Origin: Kiritimatiellia bacterium | GTDB taxonomy: Bacteria; Verrucomicrobiota; Kiritimatiellia; RFP12; UBA1067 | Length of the DNA stretch: 64,000 bases | NCBI GenBank assembly: GCA_045628545.1 | Contig: JAZQPI010000018.1 | Coordinates: 3,643-67,642, forward strand | Reading direction: 5' to 3' | Shown here: positions 2,204-62,653 of the stretch, one piece after another | Layout: each line of letters opens with the position of its first letter | Position numbering within the stretch: the stretch's first letter is position 1 | Position numbers and translations under genes: made by a program | Notes under the pieces: generated by a model | Databases searched by the model: none | Seen by the model: only the letters and a program-made list of their open reading frames with translations | Told to the model about the DNA's origin: nothing

Positions 2204-3127
2204 ATGAGCATGATTCGAATTGTCGGTAAGCGTGGTAAGGGTTCGTTTGAGTCGCAGCTGGATGCGGCGGCGCTCGGGCAGGACTTCGTGCAGATCGACT
2301 GCACGTCCGGGAATAAGGACGAGGTGATGATGAAAGGGCTCTCTCCTTTTTACCTCGGCCCGATCGAGTGCTATGACGGACTCGTCGCGCAACGCTTTGA
2401 GCGTGCGTGGCAATGCGCGAAGGTCTATCCCTGGATGGTCGGGGCAGACGGGAATCCTGACGGGCGCTACTTTGCGTGGCGCGATGAGATGTGGGCGAAG
2501 GAGGGATTCGCGAATAAGAGCGAGATCCGATTCCCCGCAGGGAAGGGCAATGTCGGGAAGTGCCTTTACGCCTGGTGGAAAGTCGGAGGGGAGTTCCGGA
2601 AGCTCGGTTATGTCGCCGGACGTAAGGAGATCTACATTCCGCTTTACGCGAAGGCCGTGGTGAAAACCGAGGCGTACCGGCGGCTCTGCGAACTCCGCGA
2701 CGCGGGGAAGAATCTGATGTTGATTGACTTCGATGGCTATAACATCCATCATCCCCACTACAACTTCACCTACAACGACGCGATCCATTGTCCGATCCTG
2801 AAGATGGGGCACGGCTTTGTTCTGGCGATGTTGCTGGAGGGGCTGATTACTGTCGATGAGAACGGCGCGGTGAAGTACGCCGAAGGGCTGATGACGCCGC
2901 CGAATCGGACCTGGTCGTCAGACCTCCGGAAGCTGTCCGACGAGGTGAAGCTCGCACGCAATGCGACGGCCCTTGGCGTGACGCCCGAGGAGTTTGATGC
3001 GCTCGACGCCGCGACGCGCAAGTGGCTCCGTGCCGCGGCGAAGAAGGAAACGGTCTATGCCCGAGGCTTCACGAAGGCTGGGTGGAAGCGCCTGCCGCTT
3101 GGGGAGAAGCTGAAGTTTCGCGATTAA
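2204..3127 (+). CDS. hypothetical protein (307 aa), no family recognised
   Basis: Clean ORF with a GAAAGGAAAA RBS about 8 nt upstream and protein-like composition. Sits directly downstream of the GmrSD-like gene. Confidence 0.5.
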   Translation: MSMIRIVGKRGKGSFESQLDAAALGQDFVQIDCTSGNKDEVMMKGLSPFYLGPIECYDGLVAQRFERAWQCAKVYPWMVGADGNPDGRYFAWRDEMWAKEGFANKSEIRFPAGKGNVGKCLYAWWKVGGEFRKLGYVAGRKEIYIPLYAKAVVKTEAYRRLCELRDAGKNLMLIDFDGYNIHHPHYNFTYNDAIHCPILKMGHGFVLAMLLEGLITVDENGAVKYAEGLMTPPNRTWSSDLRKLSDEVKLARNATALGVTPEEFDALDAATRKWLRAAAKKETVYARGFTKAGWKRLPLGEKLKFRD

Positions 3128-3222: not shown

Positions 3223-3870
3223 ATGGCTACACGTCCGTTCTATCGTCCGTTGGAGAAGTTCGCCGGATACAAGACCGTCGATTCGGCGCCGTTTGAATGG
3301 CACGGCGGGTTCGCGTTCTCGCAGAAGCAGAAGAATGTCGTGGCGCTGCACGACGCCATCAAGAAGGTCGATCCGACGGCGAGGACGCTGGAGATCTCGA
3401 GCAAGTCGCTGCAGCCGCTGGGCGTGTCCCTGAGCGCGTTCAACCTGATGATGGACCTGAACGGCACGAAGTGTTCGGTCGAGTCGGTCTTCCAGTCCGG
3501 AAAGGTGTTCGAGGGCGGGGTCGGTCCGTTCCCGGAACTCTGCTCGCACGATTCGCGCGAGGTCCGTCATTTCGTCCAGGATCAGTCGGCCGGTCGCCGT
3601 CTGGTCGCCTTCGAGGTGAGCGGGGAACGGTGGCCGCTGGAGCCGAAGACCGCGTTCTTCTATCATCTCTACTTGAAGGCGCTGGTTGACAATCCGACGC
3701 TCGCCGACGGACTGATGGAATATGACGCGTTCACCGACATCGAGTTCAATCCGAAGCGGCAGATCAACTGTCAGGCCGCGGCCGCCGCGTTTTACGTCTC
3801 GCTGAGAAAGCTCGGAAAACTCGAGTGGGCGATGTCCTCGAAAGAGAATTTCCTGCGGACGAATCCGTAG
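3223..3870 (+). CDS. hypothetical protein (215 aa), no family recognised
   Basis: Clean ORF with an AAAGGA RBS. Separated from the upstream gene by a weak GAACGC...GCGTTC hairpin. It does not match the DarT YHFTHIDNL motif I recall. Confidence 0.5.
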   Translation: MATRPFYRPLEKFAGYKTVDSAPFEWHGGFAFSQKQKNVVALHDAIKKVDPTARTLEISSKSLQPLGVSLSAFNLMMDLNGTKCSVESVFQSGKVFEGGVGPFPELCSHDSREVRHFVQDQSAGRRLVAFEVSGERWPLEPKTAFFYHLYLKALVDNPTLADGLMEYDAFTDIEFNPKRQINCQAAAAAFYVSLRKLGKLEWAMSSKENFLRTNP

Positions 3871-3875
3871 CCTGA

Positions 3876-3907
3876 TTTTGGTATAGTGTTAAATGTTATG
3901 GTATAAT
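3876..3907 (+). promoter_or_regulatory. tandem extended -10 elements (TGGTATAGT and TGGTATAAT) with no ORF downstream
   Basis: TGGTATAGT at 3879-3887 and TGGTATAAT at 3899-3907. The same extended -10 shape precedes ilvB and rpoD in this window. The next credible CDS is more than 1.2 kb away. Confidence 0.3.
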
Positions 3908-4002
3908 CCGAGTTTGTCACTTTGTGATCGGTCAAAATGACGTTTCACCCAATAACGACAGGCATTTGCGAGCCGTTTCGCCTCGTTGGCGGGTCGGTCC
4001 GC

Positions 4003-4061
4003 GAATTTTTTCACCACGGAAGGCACGGAAACTGCATTCGCAGGCACAGAAGCGGTCGGGG
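4003..4061. repeat. left arm of a ~60-bp imperfect inverted repeat pair
   Basis: GAATTTTTTCACCACGGAAGGCACGGAAACTGCATTCGCAGGCACAGAAGCGGTCGGGG is about 85% identical to the reverse complement of 4417-4476. Confidence 0.55.
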
Positions 4062-4325
4062 AAAGAGACCCGAAAGACGATTCAACCGCAATGCTACCCC
4101 TCCGACATGCGGGCGATTTGAGCACTTTTCGCCACGAGCCAGGCATTGCCGTAGTCATTGGCTATCCATTGCCTTCAGCGAAAAGTTCAAATCGCCCGCG
4201 TGGGTGTTTGGAAGTCGTGTGTCGTGCAAGCCCTGCAAGCAAGGGGCGTCGGCGACACGCGATTCAAATTGCCCAGCGCGAACGGTTTGAACAATTTCGA
4301 CACGGGGACTGCAGTCCATAGGACG

Positions 4326-4362
4326 CCGTTTGAGCACTCGCGTCGAAATTGTGCTCAAACCG
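4326..4362. repeat. 10-bp perfect stem hairpin (GTTTGAGCAC / GTGCTCAAAC) with a 13-nt loop, inside the inverted-repeat-bounded element
   Basis: Read directly from the sequence. Related motifs GATTTGAGCAC (~4117) and GGTTTGAACAA (~4283) recur nearby. Confidence 0.5.
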
Positions 4363-4416
4363 TTCGCAGGGTGGCGGGGGGCATAGGAGGGTTGAATTGT
4401 GCAAGGCGGTCCATTT

Positions 4417-4476
4417 CCCCAACCGTTTCTGTGCCGCCCGAATGCGGGTTTCCGTGAACTTCCGTGGTGAAAATCC
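4417..4476. repeat. right arm of the ~60-bp imperfect inverted repeat pair
   Basis: Its reverse complement, GGATTTTCACCACGGAAGTTCACGGAAACCCGCATTCGGGCGGCACAGAAACGGTTGGGG, aligns with 4003-4061. Confidence 0.55.
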
Positions 4477-4615
4477 CCGGCTGTTTGAGGCGCGGGGGTG
4501 GTCCCGCCTGCTCGCCCGATCCGCAGATGACGGGCCCCACGACATGATTTCGACGCGCGTGCTGGGGCACGCGCCCGTACGCCGGCGGTCGAAATCACGT
4601 CGCACCCGTCATCGT

Positions 4616-4638
4616 GCTCTCGTGCGCCAGTCGGCTCC
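4616..4638 (+). repeat. 23-bp direct repeat copy 1 (GCTCTCGTGCGCCAGTCGGCTCC)
   Basis: Identical 23-mer recurs at 4798-4820. The two copies bracket a microsatellite block. Confidence 0.6.
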
Positions 4639-4735
4639 CACCCCACGCGCTGGAGGGGCGTTTCTAAAGCGGCTGTTGCAACTCTTAATAGTTGAAAGAA
4701 CCACTCTCCAACTCCAACTCTTGACTCCAACTGAA

Positions 4736-4792
4736 CCAAATCGAACAATCGAACAATCGAACAATCTGAACAATCGAACAATCGAGCAATCT
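4736..4792 (+). repeat. tandem 8/9-mer microsatellite (AATCGAACA x ~6) preceded by CAACTC x ~4
   Basis: cgaacaatcgaacaatcgaacaatctgaacaatcgaacaatcgagcaatc followed by TTTTTT. Confidence 0.7.
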
Positions 4793-4797
4793 TTTTT

Positions 4798-4820
4798 GCT
4801 CTCGTGCGCCAGTCGGCTCC
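4798..4820 (+). repeat. 23-bp direct repeat copy 2
   Basis: Identical to 4616-4638. Confidence 0.6.
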
Positions 4821-5185
4821 GAGAGAGTGAAATCGATCTGGCGACCGTCAATATTGGGTGAGACAGACTCTTATTGATGTTCAAAGTGGCAAACTCGCAC
4901 CCTTGCGACGCTTACGATATTTTCTTTATTTTCCAAACCCGCAAAAAATTGATATAGTGTGCGTGGTTTTATTTTTGAGGGCCCTTGGACTCTCAATTTT
5001 GCTCCTTGACAACTGATTTCATCAATCTCCGTGAACAGAAAGGCGTGTCTTTTGAAGATGTGTCTTTTTTTAAAAAATCAACAAGAAAGGAGGTTTATAT
5101 AATATAATGACACTTTCGTGTGTCAGGTGTCCGGCATTGCAAGATTGTGCCGGCAGTACAGTTTACTATTACGAAAGGAGCGAAA

Positions 5186-5362
5186 ATGAAGACAGACAAC
5201 CTATTCGAGGAAATAAAAATCAAGATGGTCATGAAACTTCGTGGCTTGCCCCGCGAGGCGGCCGTCAAGGAGCTGCGCGGGAGCTGCGGCCGGTCGATGG
5301 ACATCGGCCGCTGCGAAAGCGACGAGCTTATGTCAGCCGAAGATTTTTTTGGCGAGGACTAA
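5186..5362 (+). CDS. small hypothetical protein (58 aa) immediately upstream of clpP
   Basis: AGGAG RBS 5 nt before the ATG (acgaaaggagcgaaaATG). A TATAAT element lies ~85 nt upstream (5098-5103). The leader contains a CCGGCA...TGCCGG hairpin. The C-terminus is acidic (EDFFGED). Confidence 0.4.
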   Translation: MKTDNLFEEIKIKMVMKLRGLPREAAVKELRGSCGRSMDIGRCESDELMSAEDFFGED

Positions 5363-5391
5363 AACATTAACCAACGAGAAAGGACGACAAC

Positions 5392-5970
5392 ATGCAGAAT
5401 ATGCTGATCCCGATAGTAGTCGAAAAGTCAGGCGGCGGGGAGCGCGCGTATGACATCTATTCGCGCCTCCTGAAGGACCGCATCGTGTTCGTGAGCGGTG
5501 AAGTCGAGGACGGAATGGCCAACGCCATCGTCGCGCAGCTTCTGTTCCTCCAGGCCGAGGACCCGGAGAAGGAGATCTCTATGTACATCAACTCGCCGGG
5601 CGGCAGTGTTACGGCGGGACTCGCCATCCTCGACACCATGAAGATGGTGAAGTGCCCGGTCGCGACCTATTGCGTCGGCCAGGCGGCTTCGATGGGGGCG
5701 ATCCTGCTCGCGGCCGGCGAGAAGGGCCGCCGTCACGCGCTCCCGAACGCCCGCATCATGATCCACCAGCCGTGGGGCGGTGCGCAGGGCAAGGCCAGCG
5801 ACATCGAGATCACCGCGAAGGAGATACTTCGGCTCAAGGAAATCCTGAACGGCATCCTCGCGGAAGCCTCCGGCAAGACGCTCGAAGCCGTCACCAAGGA
5901 TACCGACCGCGACCACTTCATGTCCGCCGCCGAGGCCAAGTCCTGGGGTATCGTGGACAAGGTCTTGTAA
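5392..5970 (+). CDS. clpP: ATP-dependent Clp protease proteolytic subunit ClpP
   Basis: Catalytic-triad contexts GQAASMG (Ser), MIHQP (His) and an acidic residue; length 192 aa; characteristic YSRLLKDRI start. Confidence 0.95.
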
Positions 5971-5985
5971 GGGGCCTTGGCTTTC

Positions 5986-6022
5986 AAATCGAACAATCAA
6001 ACAATCACACAACCAAACAATT
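5986..6022 (+). repeat. CA-rich degenerate octamer repeat (AATCGAACA AATCAAACA ATCACACA ACCAAACA) directly upstream of the AAA+ gene start
   Basis: Same AATCGAACA unit as the 4736-4792 microsatellite. It ends 8 nt before the ATG at 6030 and no Shine-Dalgarno is visible there. Confidence 0.5.
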
Positions 6023-6029
6023 CCCTATT

Positions 6030-8204
6030 ATGGCTAAATTCAAACAGGTTCCGCAGTCATATCTCTTCCACAAGCTCTTGAACTTCTGGGGGAATATGGT
6101 TAAAAACTACAGCAGCGAAGTGCAGGACAATGACTTTTTCGACATCGTCCGCAACTGCTTCGACCACGACAAGGCGGTCGAACTGATTGAGATCGCCTAC
6201 ACGCCAGAAGAGATCAAGGCGATGACGGAGAGCCGCTCTCGCCGCGGCCGCCTCGACTTCGACGATTCTCTCGACGATGTCTTTCAGAGCCTCTGGAATC
6301 ACGACGAGAACCGTGAGAAGTGCCGCATCGTCCTGCAGTCCATCAAGGACTATATGGCCGACGACAGCCCCAAAACCAAGGACGAGACGATGGAAAGGCG
6401 CTTCATGGAGCTGAAGCGCGTCCTTCATCTTTCCGACCTCGAGTTCGACTTGCTGACCGTCGCCTATGTGAGTTCTCAGACCTGCTTCTGCTGGCCGCGC
6501 CGCGTCGCGGACCGCGACAAGCCGCTCTACTTTGCGATGGCGCTCGACCGCTCCTATCCCGAGGTCCTGCAGGCGATGAACGCGAAGGGCAGGCTCCGCA
6601 AGTTCAACCTGCTGGACAGCGACTGGGACTTCAACTGCCGCACCATCGGCGGCTACATCGACGGTACCGACTCCGAGGCCGTCGAGCGTCGCTTCTACAA
6701 GCGGAACGCGGAGGCCGAGGTCCTGCCGTGGGACTTCTACGGCGAACTCGCGTCCAAGGACGGCGAGGTCCTGAAGCGCATGCTGGCGGCGAAGCCCAAG
6801 AAGTGCAATATCCTCTTCTACGGCGCGCCGGGAACGGGCAAGACCTCCTTCGCCCGTACGCTCGCCGAGGAGCTCGGCCGCACGGCCTGGGAGATCAAGC
6901 AGGGCGACGATGACGGCAAGAACATGAAGTCCGAGGCCCGTATGATGGGCATCCAGATCTGCAACGAGCAGGAGTCCGCCGACGAGTCGCTCATGATCGT
7001 CGACGAGGCGGACGAGCTTCTGCGCGGCAGCTCGTGCGGATTCAGCCCCTTCGACCTCGACATAGGCGGGAAGTCCACCGAGAAGGGCGTGATGAACGCG
7101 ATGCTCGACGAGATGAAGATGCCGGCGGTGTGGATCTCCAACGCGCCGGCGTGCATGATGGACGAGAGCGTCCGCCGGCGTTTCGACTACTCGATCTGCT
7201 TCGAGGAGCTGAACAACACGCAGCGCGTCTCCATCTGGCGCAATGTCGTCAGGAAGCTTGAACTCGGCGATCTGATCTCCGAGACGCAGATCGCCGACTA
7301 CGCCGAGAAGTACGCGACGAGCGCGGGCGGCATTTCGACCGTCCTTGATAACGTCAAGCGCCTCAACCCCGGAAAGGACAAGGTGGACGAGACCGTCGCG
7401 ACGCTCATGAAGCCGCACTGCAAGCTCATGGAGGTCAAGGAGGCGAACCGCTTCCTTCCCGCCAAGGGCTATTCGCTCGAAGGCCTCAACATCAAGGGCA
7501 AGGTCGGCCTTGAGAAGGTCGTGAAGGCTGTCCGCAACTACATGGACGCGTCCTTCAACGCGAAGAGCGAAGACGTGCCCCGCATGAACCTGCTCATGTT
7601 CGGACCGCCCGGAACGGGCAAGACGGAGTTCGTGAAGTATCTCGGCAAGGAACTCGACCGCAAGATCATCGTGATGAAGGGCTCGGACATTCTCTCGAAG
7701 TGGGTCGGAGAATCCGAGCATAACATCGCGAAGGCCTTCATCCGCGCCGGACAGGAGCGCGCGATACTGTTCTTCGACGAGATCGACGGACTCGTCCAGG
7801 CGCGCGAGCGGGCCTCGTGTAGCTGGGAGGTCGCCCAGGTCAACGAGCTTCTCCAGCAGATGGAGAACTTCGACGGCGTGATGATCGCGGCGACGAATTT
7901 CTGCAAGAACCTCGATCCGGCGATCATGCGCCGCTTCACGTTCAAGCTGGAGTTCGACTATCTTGACGACGCGGGCAAGAAGTCCTTCTTCGAGCGCATG
8001 TTCAAGACCGAGCTGACCGACGCCGAGTTCGGCGAACTGAAGTCGATCAGGAACCTCGCGCCCGGAGACTTCCGCACGGTTCGCCAGGAGTCCTTCTACC
8101 TCGGAGAGGCCCAGACGAACGCGGACCTCATCGCGGCACTGAAGGATGAATGCGCACTCAAGAAGGACGGCGAGAAGACGGCGAAAATCGGTTTCGGCGC
8201 CTAA
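6030..8204 (+). CDS. tandem classic-clade AAA+ ATPase (two AAA modules, Cdc48/FtsH-like) with a C-terminal IGFGA tail, encoded directly downstream of clpP
   Basis: D1 has Walker A GAPGTGKTS, Walker B IVDEADEL and RRRFD. D2 has Walker A GPPGTGKTE, Walker B ILFFDEIDGL and SRH ...IAATNFCKNLDPAIMRRF. A ~265-aa N-terminal domain of unknown type precedes them. The last residues are ...TAKIGFGA. Start was chosen at the first ATG with protein-like downstream sequence; the track extension from 5652 overlaps clpP in another frame. Confidence 0.8.
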   Translation: MAKFKQVPQSYLFHKLLNFWGNMVKNYSSEVQDNDFFDIVRNCFDHDKAVELIEIAYTPEEIKAMTESRSRRGRLDFDDSLDDVFQSLWNHDENREKCRIVLQSIKDYMADDSPKTKDETMERRFMELKRVLHLSDLEFDLLTVAYVSSQTCFCWPRRVADRDKPLYFAMALDRSYPEVLQAMNAKGRLRKFNLLDSDWDFNCRTIGGYIDGTDSEAVERRFYKRNAEAEVLPWDFYGELASKDGEVLKRMLAAKPKKCNILFYGAPGTGKTSFARTLAEELGRTAWEIKQGDDDGKNMKSEARMMGIQICNEQESADESLMIVDEADELLRGSSCGFSPFDLDIGGKSTEKGVMNAMLDEMKMPAVWISNAPACMMDESVRRRFDYSICFEELNNTQRVSIWRNVVRKLELGDLISETQIADYAEKYATSAGGISTVLDNVKRLNPGKDKVDETVATLMKPHCKLMEVKEANRFLPAKGYSLEGLNIKGKVGLEKVVKAVRNYMDASFNAKSEDVPRMNLLMFGPPGTGKTEFVKYLGKELDRKIIVMKGSDILSKWVGESEHNIAKAFIRAGQERAILFFDEIDGLVQARERASCSWEVAQVNELLQQMENFDGVMIAATNFCKNLDPAIMRRFTFKLEFDYLDDAGKKSFFERMFKTELTDAEFGELKSIRNLAPGDFRTVRQESFYLGEAQTNADLIAALKDECALKKDGEKTAKIGFGA

Positions 8205-9772: not shown

Positions 9773-9821
9773 CGGCCGCCGGCGGCCGAAAACAAGGGGG
9801 CGCGGCAATTCTGCCGCGCCC
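9773..9821 (+). terminator. GC-rich palindrome plus hairpin after rubredoxin (possible terminator, no T-tract)
   Basis: CGGCCGCCGGCGGCCG palindrome, then GGCGCGGCA-attc-TGCCGCGCC. Confidence 0.3.
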
Positions 9822-9926
9822 TGGAGTTTACCCATTTTCTGACCGCTGAAACGCATCTCGCCCCGATAAATAAAGGGTGATGTGCGTTTCCGCAAGTGAA
9901 ATTGGCGTGATTCTTCCGTGGAATGG

Positions 9927-11500
9927 ACTTTGAGCTGTGTGGCTCACGCTGTAGCTCCTGGGAACCGGATGGGATTCGTGCACCCCGATTCGCCCGGCAT
10001 CGGCTTCAGCAGAGGTCTGCCGCGAACAGTTCCCTGAATCCAGGAAGGAATTCCAGCAGCTCGTTTTCGGTTGGCGCGGGTTCCGGATCGATGATCTTGC
10101 GGCACCATTTTCCGAATCGCGTGAAGGCGCGTTTGAGCCCGTCCGCGATCGCGTAGTTGGCGAACTCCGGGACCTTGCCGAGCCTCTGTGAAAGCGTCTT
10201 CAGATGCTCTGCGAGGACTTCGCGCTTCACATGTCGTCCGAGCCAGGCCGAAGCGAAGTACGTCGTGGCGAGGACGATCGACGCCATGTTGCGGATGCCG
10301 CAGTAGGACAGCACCCGGATGTTCTCGAATCCATAGGCCTGCTTGACGAACCGGATCGTCTCCTCGATCCTCCAGCGCGTGAGGTATCCTTCGACGATCC
10401 GCCACATCGACTCGAACGATCCATTGACGGGAAGCGACGTCAGCAGCATCATCGGGTCGTCGCCAAAGCCTTTCGCCACGATCATGTGCAGTTCCTTTTC
10501 AGGATGCATGGGAAGGCGTACGGGTATCGCTCCGAACGAGATCTGCACGCTGCATTCCTTCCCGTGGGAGTCGAACTCGACATGATGATGGTGACGCATG
10601 GTGCATTGCTGGGCGGGCCAGTGGATCTCGTGAAGGCCTTTCCACGAGAGCACGTTCCGTCCCGTCATGCGGACGATGAAGTCCCAGCCGTTCTTTATGA
10701 AAGCCCCGTAAAATGCGGGTCTGTCGCCGCCTCTGTCATATACGAGGATGCCTTTGCCGCCGGTCGCGGACATGATTGCGGTGATGAGCTTGAGCACTTC
10801 GTCGTTTTCTCCCAGATGTCCGGGAGCGCGCGACGACCAGAGTTTGAGCGCGAGCGGTACGGTCTTGCGCCTGCCGCTCTGACAGGCGACGGCCATGCAG
10901 CCGTGATAGCCGTGCACGAGCACCTCGCATCTTTCTTTCGACGAGCGGCTTGCGTCCCTGACCATCGTGACGTGCTCCATGTGAAGACCGAACTCCTTCC
11001 GGATCTCCGTCGGGTCGACTAGTATGAGTGAGTCGTCGCGGACGTGCTTCGCGCCTTCCGCGAGGATGGCCTTGTCGATTTCCATGCCGATTCCCTCGTT
11101 CGCCACGTTACGGCTCAGTCGCTTCTCGACGGCGTGTTTCATGTCGGGATCGTCGTTGATCGCCCGCATGATCGACGAGAGCTGCGTGTCTCCCGAGGCC
11201 TGTATCCCGTAGAGCATGTCGGCCAGGAACTTCTTCCTCGGCTTCGAGAAATGGGTAAACACTTTACCCAGAAATTTTCTGAGTTGCTCTTTCGCTCTGA
11301 AGGCAATTGTGCTATCATTCATGTCGTGGTCTTCTCCTTTCGTTCATTTAGCGCATCCTGTATTCTACAGGAAAACGGGACGGGAAGACCACGCTTTTTT
11401 TCAGACGGTGTGGAGATGGCCTAGTCGCGAGAGGGGTTTCAGTCTGGCGAAGCGGTAGTGTGAGCCACACCGTTCGGAGTCAAAATTGGCGGGCAGGGCG
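9927..11500 (-). mobile_element. insertion sequence (~1.55 kb) with terminal inverted repeats and a single DDE transposase
   Basis: GTGTGGCTCAC at 9937-9947 is the reverse complement of GTGAGCCACAC at 11480-11490. The match extends imperfectly by ~10 bp on each side (ACTTTGAGCT vs ACTCCGAACG). No clear target-site duplication seen. Confidence 0.75.
10006..11322 (-). CDS. IS4/IS1634-like DDE transposase (438 aa)
   Basis: Full-length ORF on the minus strand. LVYDRGGD...RWRIEETIRFVKQAYGFENIRV is characteristic of IS4-superfamily transposases. Bounded by the terminal inverted repeats. Confidence 0.8.
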   Translation of the reverse strand: MNDSTIAFRAKEQLRKFLGKVFTHFSKPRKKFLADMLYGIQASGDTQLSSIMRAINDDPDMKHAVEKRLSRNVANEGIGMEIDKAILAEGAKHVRDDSLILVDPTEIRKEFGLHMEHVTMVRDASRSSKERCEVLVHGYHGCMAVACQSGRRKTVPLALKLWSSRAPGHLGENDEVLKLITAIMSATGGKGILVYDRGGDRPAFYGAFIKNGWDFIVRMTGRNVLSWKGLHEIHWPAQQCTMRHHHHVEFDSHGKECSVQISFGAIPVRLPMHPEKELHMIVAKGFGDDPMMLLTSLPVNGSFESMWRIVEGYLTRWRIEETIRFVKQAYGFENIRVLSYCGIRNMASIVLATTYFASAWLGRHVKREVLAEHLKTLSQRLGKVPEFANYAIADGLKRAFTRFGKWCRKIIDPEPAPTENELLEFLPGFRELFAADLC

Positions 11501-11737
11501 GGGCGGAAATCGGCAGGGAATCAAAAATGGGTAAACTCCAGGCGGGATGAGGTTGACAATCTGCCTGAGAATAGGGTATACTGTTTTCGTTGCCTTTGGT
11601 GGTGTTGTTTTCATAATCCTGTAGGTTACAGGAAATCGCCGCCAAATGCAACACTAAACTTTCATCCCTTCGCGAACGCAGTGAGCGAATGGGATGCTAA
11701 TGGTCGTAGCCTTTAAGTTGAGCTAAGGAGGAATATC

Positions 11738-11998: not shown

Positions 11999-12130
11999 AG
12001 TCCGGTAGGCGTGTTATTAAGAAAGTCTGGGGATCGAATCAATGGCCTCGAGAGTGGTCGGCGGTCAGTCGACTGTTGGCATATTTCGGCGCGGAAGATA
12101 TGGTTGGACCGTGCGCTGGGGACGAATGAT

Positions 12131-13957
12131 ATGACTTTGTCTGAAGATCAGCAGTTGGCGCTTGATGCGATGATGTCCGGGAAGAACGTCTTCCTGACAG
12201 GCGAAGCCGGTACGGGCAAGTCCACAGTGCTTCGGGAGTTCCGGACTCGATGTGATCGTGCCTGCGTGGTTTTGGCTCCTACCGGGGTTGCGGCCATCAA
12301 TGCCGGTGGCGCGACAATTCACAGCTTCTTCATGCTGCCGCCTGGATTGATGACACCGGATACGATCGATGAAATTACTCATGGCAAGAAAAGGGCGATC
12401 ATCCGGGCGACAAAGACAATTATCATTGATGAGATCTCAATGGTGCGCAGTGATGTGTTTGCAGCTATGGATATACGGCTCCGCGGACTGGCTCGAGGTG
12501 GTAATGCAAAGCGCCCATTTGGCGGGAAGCAGATTATTCTCGTGGGCGATTATTTCCAGTTGCCGCCAGTAGTGAAGACCGAGACGGAGTCTGATTATCT
12601 CAATAATCATTTGGGTGGCGGGTACGCTTTCCAGACCAGGCTTTGGGCGGATGCTAAGTTCAAGTGCGTGTTCCTCCGCAAGGTCCATCGTCAGCGCAAT
12701 GACGTGCGATTCCTCGCGATTCTGAACAGCATTAGACATGGTTCTTTGGATGATGCCAATGTTGAGGTTGAAGGCGGGGTTCGCATTACGGCTGCCGAGG
12801 CGCTGAATCGATACTGTCTCAATAATGAGCGTCTCCCTGCTGAGCCGATTTGCCTTTGCACGACGAATCGAGAGGCGCATGCGCTGAATACGGCGGCAAG
12901 GGCACGATTGAAAGCGCAAGGTTCCAAGTTTGTCGCTGTTGTAAGCGGCAGGTTCCCGGAGGCTGATTATCCGACGGAATTTAGTCTTGAGCTTATGAAG
13001 GGAGCGCGTGTCATGTTGCTTACCAACAAGCGCCTCCCGGATGGAGACTATGAATATGTCAATGGCGATATGGGAGCGGTGACGGAAATCTCCAGCTTTG
13101 ATGAATCGCCAAGGGTTCAAATCAGGCTTGATCGCAATGGGCGAGAAGTGTCGGTGGCGAGCAAAGAATGGAAGAACTATGCATATGTGATTGAGGAGGA
13201 TAAAATTAGTGGCAAGAAGGTTCTTCGTCAGCGCGAAATCGGAAAGTTCGCCCAAATTCCTCTTCGGCTTGCCTACGCAATTACCGTGCACAAGTCACAG
13301 GGACTGAGTTTGGACTGCGTGGATATCCGTCTTGGAAGCGGGTGCTTTACGCATGGGCAGCTCTATACGGCGCTTTCTCGCTGCCGGTCGCTAGAAGGGC
13401 TTCGGATTGATCGGACCGTCATGAAGGATGACCTTATTCTAGACGATGCGGTTGTCCGGTTCTACAAGACGATAGAGGAAGGATGGGAGCGCTCTGACAA
13501 GACTGTGTCATTGGACGTGCCGCCGGAATTCGAGGCTGCGATGAAGGCGTATCTTGAAAAGCTGAAGTCGGGAAGAGGCAATGTCCAGTCGGCCCCAGGG
13601 AGTCCTGTGTTGCGGCATCGTCCTGTTCAGCGAGAGTTGGGCTTGCCGTCGGTTCCACCCTCAATATTGGAATCTCCACAATCGTTACTACATGAAAACA
13701 ACAGACGAGAGGAGCGCGTGAGTGATCATATTGATCTGGAGAAGTTGCGCGTCGTCTATTCGGGACAGACAGGGTCGGAGAAATCGGATGGAATGACCAA
13801 AAAGGAAAATGGCGTCGGCTTTAATAAGTTCGATGCGCCGATATTGTCTCGGATTGCCGAAGGGTTCTTCAAAAACGGCTGGGTGACACGGACGGAGCTG
13901 GCGGAGGTGACGCATCGTATTCAGAAGTATCGTCGCCAGTGGGAAGGGCGGGTCTGA
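12131..13957 (+). CDS. Pif1/RecD-family 5'-3' DNA helicase (608 aa) with a C-terminal extension
   Basis: Walker A LTGEAGTGKST, then VLAPTGVAAINAGGATIHSFF, DEISMV, ILVGDYFQLPPV, AITVHKSQGLSLD, YTALSRCRSLEGL. The track ORF starts earlier (12011) but the helicase N-terminus aligns from the Met at 12131. Confidence 0.85.
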   Translation: MTLSEDQQLALDAMMSGKNVFLTGEAGTGKSTVLREFRTRCDRACVVLAPTGVAAINAGGATIHSFFMLPPGLMTPDTIDEITHGKKRAIIRATKTIIIDEISMVRSDVFAAMDIRLRGLARGGNAKRPFGGKQIILVGDYFQLPPVVKTETESDYLNNHLGGGYAFQTRLWADAKFKCVFLRKVHRQRNDVRFLAILNSIRHGSLDDANVEVEGGVRITAAEALNRYCLNNERLPAEPICLCTTNREAHALNTAARARLKAQGSKFVAVVSGRFPEADYPTEFSLELMKGARVMLLTNKRLPDGDYEYVNGDMGAVTEISSFDESPRVQIRLDRNGREVSVASKEWKNYAYVIEEDKISGKKVLRQREIGKFAQIPLRLAYAITVHKSQGLSLDCVDIRLGSGCFTHGQLYTALSRCRSLEGLRIDRTVMKDDLILDDAVVRFYKTIEEGWERSDKTVSLDVPPEFEAAMKAYLEKLKSGRGNVQSAPGSPVLRHRPVQRELGLPSVPPSILESPQSLLHENNRREERVSDHIDLEKLRVVYSGQTGSEKSDGMTKKENGVGFNKFDAPILSRIAEGFFKNGWVTRTELAEVTHRIQKYRRQWEGRV

Positions 13958-62481: not shown

Positions 62482-62558
62482 GGGGTTGTGGCGCAATTGG
62501 TTAGCGCACTGGACTGTCGATCCGGGGGTTGCGGGTTCGAGCCCCGTCGACCCCGCCA
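62482..62558 (+). tRNA. tRNA-Asp (anticodon GUC)
   Basis: Manual fold. Acceptor GGGGTTG/CGACCCC, D-stem GCGC/GCGC, anticodon stem CTGGA/TCCGG with loop CTGTCGA, T-arm GCGGG-TTCGAGC-CCCGT. Discriminator G plus encoded CCA. 77 nt. Confidence 0.9.
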
Positions 62559-62579
62559 GTACGGGGAAGCAAGAGGGAT

Positions 62580-62653
62580 TGCCTCGTGGTGTAATGGTAG
62601 CACCCAAGATTCTGATTCTTGTTGTTGGGGTTCGAGTCCCTGCGAGGCAACCA
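62580..62653 (+). tRNA. tRNA-Gln (anticodon CUG)
   Basis: Manual fold. U1:A72 acceptor TGCCTCG/CGAGGCA, 3-bp D-stem, anticodon stem CAAGA/TCTTG with loop TTCTGAT, T-loop TTCGAGT. Discriminator A plus CCA. 74 nt. Confidence 0.8.

Follow-up and report, generated by a model that had tools for sequence, protein, structure and literature searches.

Between positions 3870 and 5186 of a 64,000-nt stretch of a Kiritimatiellia genome (hereafter the window; coordinates are positions in it, and L-numbers denote the loci with which it was compared), there is no credible open reading frame (ORF). This gene-less stretch is bounded on the left by the gene of a NADAR antitoxin and on the right by a conserved ORF of 58 aa (5186-5362) that is followed by clpP and the gene of a double-AAA+ ATPase. 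An original prediction, made from the letters alone, had described the region as 1.2 kb of non-coding, repeat-rich DNA with tandem promoters, an inverted-repeat pair, a short hairpin, direct repeats, and microsatellites, and had offered it as a candidate structured RNA or an element resembling a miniature inverted-repeat transposable element (MITE). Each of the listed features was found, with small corrections, and the absence of a gene was borne out: none of the overlapping ORFs has a Pfam match, and the homologues of a 208-aa minus-strand ORF (4155-4781) are only equally spurious ORFs on other copies of a repeat. That repeat is the subject of this report. We consider it likely that 3908-4898 is a copy of a non-coding, non-autonomous foldback (MITE-like) element, which belongs to a new, nested family in a narrow lineage of Kiritimatiellia.

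The other copies were reached through the spurious 208-aa ORF. Searched against public proteins, it matched five "proteins" that are just as spurious and whose contigs carry the repeat (L016-L020), and a further copy (L032) came from a member of the spurious-ORF clusters. Seven related copies were counted at 75-96% identity, which makes eight loci with the window. The terminal repeats mark the exact limits of homology among the copies, each of which has flanking sequence of its own. The exact consensus terminal repeat is present in L016, L018, L019, L020, and L032, at both ends in L019, L020, and L032 and at one end in L016 and L018. The terminus CCGAGTTTGCCACTTTG bounds elements of this kind, and terminal-repeat matches in the 64 kb number 2 vs. 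0.09 expected. The contexts are unrelated: L016 lies between the genes of FtsJ and TilS, 16 nt before TilS; L017, from the same sample and on a separate contig, is flanked by a sigma-70-like gene and an unknown gene; and only 4 nt separate the end of L032 from the ribosome-binding site of an 839-aa gene. The contigs of L018-L020 are short. The spurious-ORF clusters comprise 17 members, all on separate contigs and most of them short, as expected for a repeat at which assemblies break. The tetranucleotide composition of L016 and L017 matches that of the window (r = 0.98); therefore, these copies come from close relatives. A library-wide HMMER search gave only four clusters at 50% identity and the family is, therefore, narrow. 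Three loci in which the small ORF and the AAA+ gene are both retained (L001-L003) lack any equivalent of the 1.2-kb region and show no inverted repeats like it. The NADAR gene of L003 is 125 nt from the next gene, and the intergenic DNA has diverged too far for an empty site to be aligned. No second copy of the element was found elsewhere in the window, phage and plasmid BLAST collections gave no match to it, and scans of viral contigs returned 0 matches for two patterns and 3 chance matches for the 17-mer terminus.

As seen in L019, L020, and L032, the basic element is ~725 bp long and consists of the terminal repeat CCCGAGTTTGCCACTTTG, an outer-left arm, an inner palindromic module, an outer-right arm, and the inverted terminal repeat. 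The inner modules of these three copies are ~93% identical mutually (measured for L019-L020 and judged from the sequence for L032). In the window, nested inverted repeats extend over the whole kilobase (3909-3924/4882-4897, 3942-3959/4847-4864, 4008-4022/4459-4473, 4043-4070/4408-4435, and 4097-4125/4351-4379). The two outermost pairs, which close the entire 1-kb region, had been missed in the original prediction, where a ~480-bp element bounded by a ~60-bp inverted repeat was proposed as MITE-like. The kind of element was correctly guessed, in that it is non-coding, has inverted-repeat ends, recurs in unrelated contexts, and is absent from L001-L003. Its extent was not: the unit is 3908-4898 with different ends of 17 bp, and the 480-bp palindrome is merely its inner module. 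The ~60-bp repeat exists, with arms that are 100% (4008-4022/4459-4473), 83% (4029-4040/4439-4450), and 86% (4043-4070/4408-4435) identical, and is actually the base of the ~100-nt arms of that module (Table 1). These arms start with CACGGAA repeats (at 4015 and 4024, inverted at 4450 and 4460). A hairpin with a perfect 10-bp stem is likewise present as described (4328-4337/4351-4360), and a longer alternative pairing (4278-4293/4352-4367, 94%) is the version kept in all copies; TTTGAGCACT is located at 4117 and 4329.

Modules of the element have been gained, lost, and rearranged between copies. An extra 160-bp hairpin module occurs only in the window and L018 (94% identical) and is absent from L016, L017, L019, and L020; in L016, GCGCGGGGG is joined directly to CGTTTTAAAGCGG, i.e., the module is precisely absent. 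The predicted direct repeat is present and exact, and it measures 24 nt rather than 23 nt; compared with the basic form, the window copy has this segment in duplicate and a CA-rich tract that is expanded. Its sequence is also present in L016, L017, and L018, and in L017 the direct-repeat module is on the other side, inverted. The microsatellites and the T6 that follows them are also where they were reported, with a period of 8 rather than 9 for AATCGAAC; at this position, other copies of the element have a different CA-rich sequence. Of the inner module, L018 possesses the arms alone, and these form a short hairpin resembling those of Planctomycetota described below. A terminator scan placed a terminator-like hairpin (3989-4002) followed by T6 within the window-specific segment of the outer-left module. 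We infer that the extra modules of the window copy are later nested insertions or rearrangements. The region is a nest of repeat modules, with no single conserved architecture.

Table 1. Coordinates of the foldback element, its modules, its neighbors in the window, and related segments in other loci.
Feature	Position (strand)	Description
GmrSD-type restriction enzyme	2-1825	Upstream defense-island content
307-aa protein	2204-3127	Weak DUF6939 match; precedes NADAR antitoxin gene
NADAR antitoxin gene	3223-3870	Pfam PF22397; DarT1-associated NADAR antitoxin, E = 1e-70
Promoter-like site	3878-3907 (+)	TTGGTA-18-TATAAT with upstream TG, 10/12 matches; flank, outside element
-10 boxes	3879-3887; 3899-3907	TGGTATAGT; TGGTATAAT; flank, outside element
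Whole foldback repeat element	3908-4898	991 bp; boundaries where homology to L016, L018, L019, L020, L032 stops
Terminal inverted repeats	3908-3924 and 4882-4898	17 bp, CCGAGTTTGYCACTTTG
Left terminal inverted repeat	3908-3924 (+)	CCGAGTTTGTCACTTTG
Right terminal inverted repeat	4882-4898 (-)	GCGAGTTTGCCACTTTG on minus strand
Outer-left module	3908-3968	Pairs with outer-right module; 95% identical to L018 648-588; aligned in L019, L020
Window-specific segment	3969-4006 (+)	Replaces outer-left interior; other copies carry a different ~70-nt segment
Inner palindromic module	4007-4474	~470 bp; long stem 4007-4104/4372-4474 (~100-nt arms) closes three hairpins
Hairpins of inner module	4106-4202; 4202-4274; 4278-4367	A; B; C
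Extra 160-bp hairpin module	4499-4658	Stem 4526-4554/4588-4613; includes direct-repeat copy 1
Exact direct repeat, 24 nt	4615-4638 (+); 4797-4820 (+)	Copy 1; copy 2, right after T6 (4791-4796)
CA-rich hypervariable tract	4706-4791 (+)	CTCCAA x4.3 at 4706-4732; AATCGAAC x6.5 at 4739-4791, period 8
Outer-right module	4823-4898	94-96% identical to L016/L017; 74-78% to L019, L020, L032
Second promoter-like site	4930-4958 (+)	TTTCCA-17-TATAGT with TG; right flank, outside element
Small ORF (58 aa)	5186-5362	
clpP	5392-5970	
Double-AAA+ ATPase gene	6030-8204	724 aa
IS4/IS701-like insertion sequence	9821-11541 (-)	Complete; transposase 10006-11322, 438-aa DDE, minus strand
CACGGAA loci	4015-4032, 4450-4466	Elsewhere: L004 1403-1545; L005 7887-7967; L007 4267-4385; L008 3656-3690; L009-L015
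Segment shared with L016, L017	4004-4498	~500 nt, 87% identity
Segment shared with L016 (4723-4617)	4791-4897	96% identity
Segment shared with L018	3908-3968	95% identity
Segment shared with L018	4473-4694	94% identity
Segment shared with L019, L020, L032	3908-4483	~75% identity
Segment shared with L019, L020, L032	4825-4897	74-78% identity

The window also contains a complete insertion sequence (IS), whose transposase matches Pfam DDE_Tnp_1 and whose NCBIfam IS701/IS4 matches are all below cut-off. Its terminal repeat, CTGGAGTTTACCCATTTT, is 18 bp long (perfect repeats of 18-19 bp stand at both ends) and is invariant down to 66% transposase identity among the copies sampled (L021-L028), one of which (L022) shows a clean 8-bp target duplication. 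The IS family is very abundant, with 2810 homologues at E <= 1e-20, mostly on contigs of 1.5-2 kb. In an end-anchored register, the terminus of the element is identical to the IS terminal repeat at 12/18 positions, with the core GAGTTT.CC..TTT, and the likeness continues subterminally for ~28 nt (p < 0.001 by shuffling). On the strength of this resemblance, the IS is a lead to the mobilizing transposase family, i.e., a candidate relative and no proof. The transposase subfamily at 66% identity (L021-L028) was considered as the carrier of the element's termini and was rejected, having the terminal repeat of the window IS instead. The foldback element would have spread by transposition, probably in trans via a DDE transposase related to this IS4/IS701-like family, and its arms would be kept complementary by palindrome-templated correction or by recognition of the ends and stems as DNA.

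Predicted folding of the region is extremely stable on either strand. The minimum free energy of 3905-4905 is -500 kcal/mol for the plus strand and -496 kcal/mol for the minus strand, vs. -361 +/- 9 kcal/mol for dinucleotide shuffles (z = -15), and the basic element of L020 folds into one branched rod of -376 kcal/mol (z = -19). A consensus fold across five copies comprises 176 pairs, with 94.4% of the cells paired, and the alignment-fold energies are -236 (plus) vs. -228 (minus) kcal/mol. Helix mismatches in the window amount to 13 G:T vs. 12 A:C, and cells of the G·U type in the five copies to 80 on the plus vs. 67 on the minus strand, distributed over 32 vs. 33 pairs (in the union of both strands' consensus pairs). 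Considering the balance of G:T and A:C, selection on one RNA strand is therefore unlikely. Pairing that is symmetric between the strands, with stems conserved over loops, is the signature of a DNA palindrome, maintained by arm-to-arm correction or sequence recognition, unlike the covarying stems of RNA. The Rfam scan that had been suggested was run with Rfam 15 (including GOLLD, ROOL, OLE, HEARO, and group I/II introns), and no family matched the stretch at its gathering score; relaxing the limit to E up to 10 added nothing but chance hairpins that scored far short of that threshold. The sole gathering-level Rfam matches in the window are two adjacent tRNA genes (62482-62650). A giant single structured RNA was our first idea, prompted by the nested inverted repeats, the z-score of -15, and the setting among defense genes, and it was dropped for want of strand bias, a constant set of modules, related contexts, or an Rfam family. 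The suggestion in the original prediction that strong promoters drive a structured RNA is not supported as a gene, for want of an Rfam family, of a strand difference in folding or mismatches, and of constant modules; the promoter also lies outside the element.

Several observations weigh against a mobile repeat and were considered with it. We found no autonomous element that shares its termini, and none of the four complete copies (window, L019, L020, and L032) is flanked by a target-site duplication of 2-9 bp. Recurrence was seen across contigs, with two copies from one sample, in searchable collections that lack the source genome, and the narrowness of the family counts in the same direction. 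Divergence is uneven: invariant columns make up 78% of paired vs. 46% of unpaired positions, with unbroken invariant stretches as long as 26, 22, and 18 nt (P about 0.01). Compensatory changes were found in 7/176 pairs (12 cells), a number of cells that 3/500 shuffles reach, in a set of five sequences from two subfamilies; they suggest some constraint beyond neutral decay, and co-evolution of inverted repeats predicts the same compensatory pattern. The plus strand folds 22-25 kcal/mol better than the minus strand in the inner module and in L020. Finally, an extended -10 box, TGnTATAA, lies directly against three of the eleven termini that were scored, namely the left ones of the window and L019 and, inverted, the right one of L032. 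This arrangement is as compatible with a transcribed element as with a preferred target. The junctions read TGGTATAA then T, GTGCTATAA then CCCGAC, and GTGCTATAA then CCCGAG, the flanks further out being otherwise unrelated, and the chance of such adjacency is ~1e-7 by a rough estimate. The element may prefer promoter cores as targets, or insertions there may be retained more often.

Some of these features would also suit a family of large, highly structured RNAs, or mobile 5'-leader modules, transcribed from host promoters and having a rod-like fold that regulates the downstream genes or is processed. The extreme predicted stability is in keeping with such a role, as are a structure that every copy retains, some compensatory changes within it, stems conserved above loops, the favored plus strand, the boxes abutting the terminus, and the position of copies just upstream of gene starts, as in L016 and L032. 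The element also resembles GOLLD, ROOL, OLE, and HEARO/omega RNA in its size range (0.6-1 kb), lack of an ORF, strong predicted structure, and neighborhood of defense islands or mobile elements. However, its helices are long and near-perfect, not short and irregular as in those ornate RNAs, and the conserved stem sequence is typical of DNA palindromes; its folding is strand-symmetric, with no bias of G·U vs. A·C; its modules vary; and it is absent from the syntenic loci of relatives and resembles no Rfam family at E up to 10. Furthermore, the -10 box of L032 is at the opposite end, so that the opposite strand would be transcribed there, and L020, L018, and L016 have no adjacent box. We therefore regard an RNA function as unlikely. 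More speculative, and a long shot in our opinion, is a promoter-seeking mobile module, inserted or kept between the extended -10 box and the transcription start and always transcribed as a rod-like 5' leader of ~0.7-1 kb. The active form would be this RNA, or a hairpin of single-stranded DNA exposed by transcription, and would serve mobility without target duplication or control of the downstream genes, and the CACGGAA arms would be a motif recognized by a protein across the phyla of the Planctomycetota-Verrucomicrobiota-Chlamydiota (PVC) group.

The CACGGAA motif of the inner-module arms indeed occurs beyond the element. A scan for TTCACCACGGAAG-N(1-2)-CACGGAAAC in one genome per species gave five matches (a Fimbriiglobus genome, on two contigs; Gemmataceae; Planctomycetota; and Kiritimatiellia), and a scan of metagenomes with the arm motif gave seven more, the hosts including soil and other metagenomes; one specific arm pattern had 0 matches in metagenomes. 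The motif comprises 2-4 CACGGAA units at a spacing of ~9 nt, usually after TTCACC. Such units either make up the two arms of a short palindrome (85-140 bp) between genes or stand as solo arms, and they often follow a stop codon directly or immediately precede a ribosome-binding site or start codon. In a Kiritimatiellia genome from horse feces (L006), ~60-75 nt of the arm are homologous to the window, and a small hairpin within the Kiritimatiellia-type arm occurs in the compensatory variants CTGC/GCAG, CCCG/CGGG, and CCGGC/GCCGG. Rfam gave no match to the CACGGAA hairpins, a string search of the literature with the arm motif yielded nothing but PCR primers, and in literature on MITEs or repetitive extragenic palindromes (REPs) of PVC bacteria nothing describing this repeat family or the CACGGAA hairpins was found. 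A sigma-54 reading of GGCACGGAAACTGCA was rejected, the GG-N10-GC spacing not being kept in L006, L004, and L007. CACGGAAG fits CANGGANG, the CsrA/RsmE consensus; this is an idea only, and the motif is in stems, not loops. Two other repeats were seen on these contigs. On the Fimbriiglobus contig, L004 5948-6046 is a long, perfect-looking hairpin with weak look-alikes among microRNA precursors in Rfam, unrelated to the CACGGAA element, and in L006 tandem heptamers of the TGGGACA type (gggacgattgggacagatgggacaagtgggacag) stand near the contig end (4935-4975, minus strand), ~200 nt from the solo CACGGAA arm.

Palindromes of this sort raise the question of whether the element is maintained by the host, like REPs or bacterial interspersed mosaic elements (BIMEs), for a role at the level of DNA or transcript ends (protein-binding arrays, terminators, insulators, or mRNA stabilizers), and spread by recombination instead of classical transposition. 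The lack of a target-site duplication would agree with this, as would the CACGGAA arms that form short palindromes or solo arms in Planctomycetota, Fimbriiglobus, Gemmataceae, and another Kiritimatiellia genome, the arms-only short hairpin of L018, and the TTTGA(A/G)C motifs, six in number, which make up three inverted pairs within invariant stems. Like REPs, BIMEs, and REPINs, these are intergenic palindromes that are clustered and mosaic. REPs are 20-40 bp long, have a GTAG or CGTC tag, and are partnered by a REP-associated tyrosine transposase (RAYT; PMC3733652). The present unit is 20-fold larger; no such tag was seen in its arms, which begin TTCACCACGGAAG (read by eye), and no RAYT/Y1 transposase was identified among the scanned proteins of the window, i.e., of 64 kb of the genome. 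In addition, the whole 725-bp unit, with its specific 17-bp ends, moves as a block between unrelated loci, and the terminal repeats resemble an IS terminus. A host-maintained palindrome is consequently quite improbable in our view. That the region is an accident of this locus (local duplication and inversion giving a unique spacer with chance palindromes) might be suggested by the single copy in the window and the absence of matches in phage and plasmid collections, but it is refuted by the seven related copies elsewhere, which share both termini and inner structure, and we give it virtually no weight.

A foldback, MITE-like repeat remains our preferred reading. Hairpin-folding bacterial MITEs include Correia/NEMIS in Neisseria, ERIC/IRU in enterobacteria, and RUP and BOX in Streptococcus, all of 100-300 bp. 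As in MITEs and foldback elements, the repeat is non-coding, has terminal inverted repeats, exists as many diverged copies, and is predicted to form long hairpins when transcribed; it is intergenic, often in promoter regions or co-transcribed, and its copies nest and lose internal parts. Unlike the named families, it measures 725-991 bp, which for a MITE is the top of the size range, is self-complementary over its whole length with a branched tip, has neither a visible target-site duplication nor a known autonomous partner with identical ends, and abuts a -10 box at 3/11 ends. Since there is no target-site duplication and no matching transposase, membership among MITEs is incomplete and hence we use the term "MITE-like." The IS4/IS701-like IS is similar in the length and sequence of the terminal repeat and shares the host lineage. 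It differs in having a transposase and in making 8-bp duplications, and the identity of the element's terminal repeat to that of the IS is partial, whereas within the IS family the repeat is invariant.

With respect to its setting, the element directly follows a -10 box in an AT-rich promoter region, which is flanked on one side by the NADAR antitoxin gene and on the other by the operon of the small ORF, clpP, and AAA+ gene. Both extended -10 elements of the original prediction are present (Table 1), and the promoter-like site that contains them ends one base before the left boundary of the element, which is certainly sited where transcription will reach it. In the simplest reading, the element landed in a region with tandem promoters. 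RNA made from the upstream promoter would have its 5' end within the left terminus and would form a long hairpin (~900 nt self-complementary), and such transcripts would probably stop at the hairpin and T-run at 3989-4010 or be cut as double-stranded RNA. The operon therefore probably relies on the second promoter-like site, in the right flank, which probably serves the small ORF, clpP, and the AAA+ gene. The flank from ~5138 onward is conserved in L001-L003. The element itself resembles ordinary selfish DNA and most likely has no dedicated host function.

A tie to the clp operon had also been proposed, based on recurrence of AATCGAACA between clpP and the AAA+ gene. The recurrence is real (AATCGAAC at 5985-6006, 22 nt, 95%, in the leader of the AAA+ gene), but a functional tie is not supported. 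The tie is weak and the likeness only compositional, of low complexity, because relatives carry other CA-rich repeats (CTAACAA x6 in L001) and other copies of the element carry unrelated CA-rich sequence. The notion that the element belongs to the AAA+/ClpP operon was also dropped, as three homologous loci (L001-L003) are without it. The leader of the AAA+ gene (5971-6029; L001 7950-8000; L003 7975-8000) has no Shine-Dalgarno sequence and contains short, CA-rich tandem repeats that differ among relatives (AATCRAAC/ACAATC in the window and CTAACAA x6 in L001); it looks like a conserved CA-repeat translation leader.

The neighboring genes include other points of note. The small ORF and the double-AAA+ ATPase are conserved together (window 5186-8204; L001 6197-10172; L002 2437-4893; L003 7407-10172), with ClpP between them in the window and L001, and the AAA+ protein has many homologues at 70-85% identity in Kiritimatiellia assemblies. 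Exact look-ups of the NADAR and AAA+ proteins of the window matched no record. Its neighbors vary, with recurrent links to ADP-ribose or DNA modification (NADAR, PARG, ADP-ribosylglycohydrolase, an SRA-like domain, and a protein kinase). The second AAA domain of the ATPase matches the IetA models of PADLOC (E = 1.6e-42), and this may be an IetAS-like defense pair of ATPase and protease that uses ClpP. Upstream, the 307-aa protein is possibly a DarT-like toxin. Beyond the IS, a PIF1/RecD-like helicase (12011-13957) has PADLOC matches to the PDC-S68 and type IV RecD models.

The identification of this repeat removes a tempting false lead, since a 1-kb stretch with a folding z-score of -15 beside defense genes mimics a giant ornate RNA and is repeat DNA by our preferred reading. 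As a bacterial MITE, it is modestly unusual in its lack of target duplication, its adjacency to -10 boxes, and an arm motif, CACGGAA, that crosses phyla. In this bacterium, the element splits the promoter region from the ClpP/AAA+ operon and may affect expression of the operon. For the annotation of metagenome bins of Kiritimatiellia and other PVC bacteria, the family would explain spurious "hypothetical proteins" of 160-210 aa as well as contig breaks.

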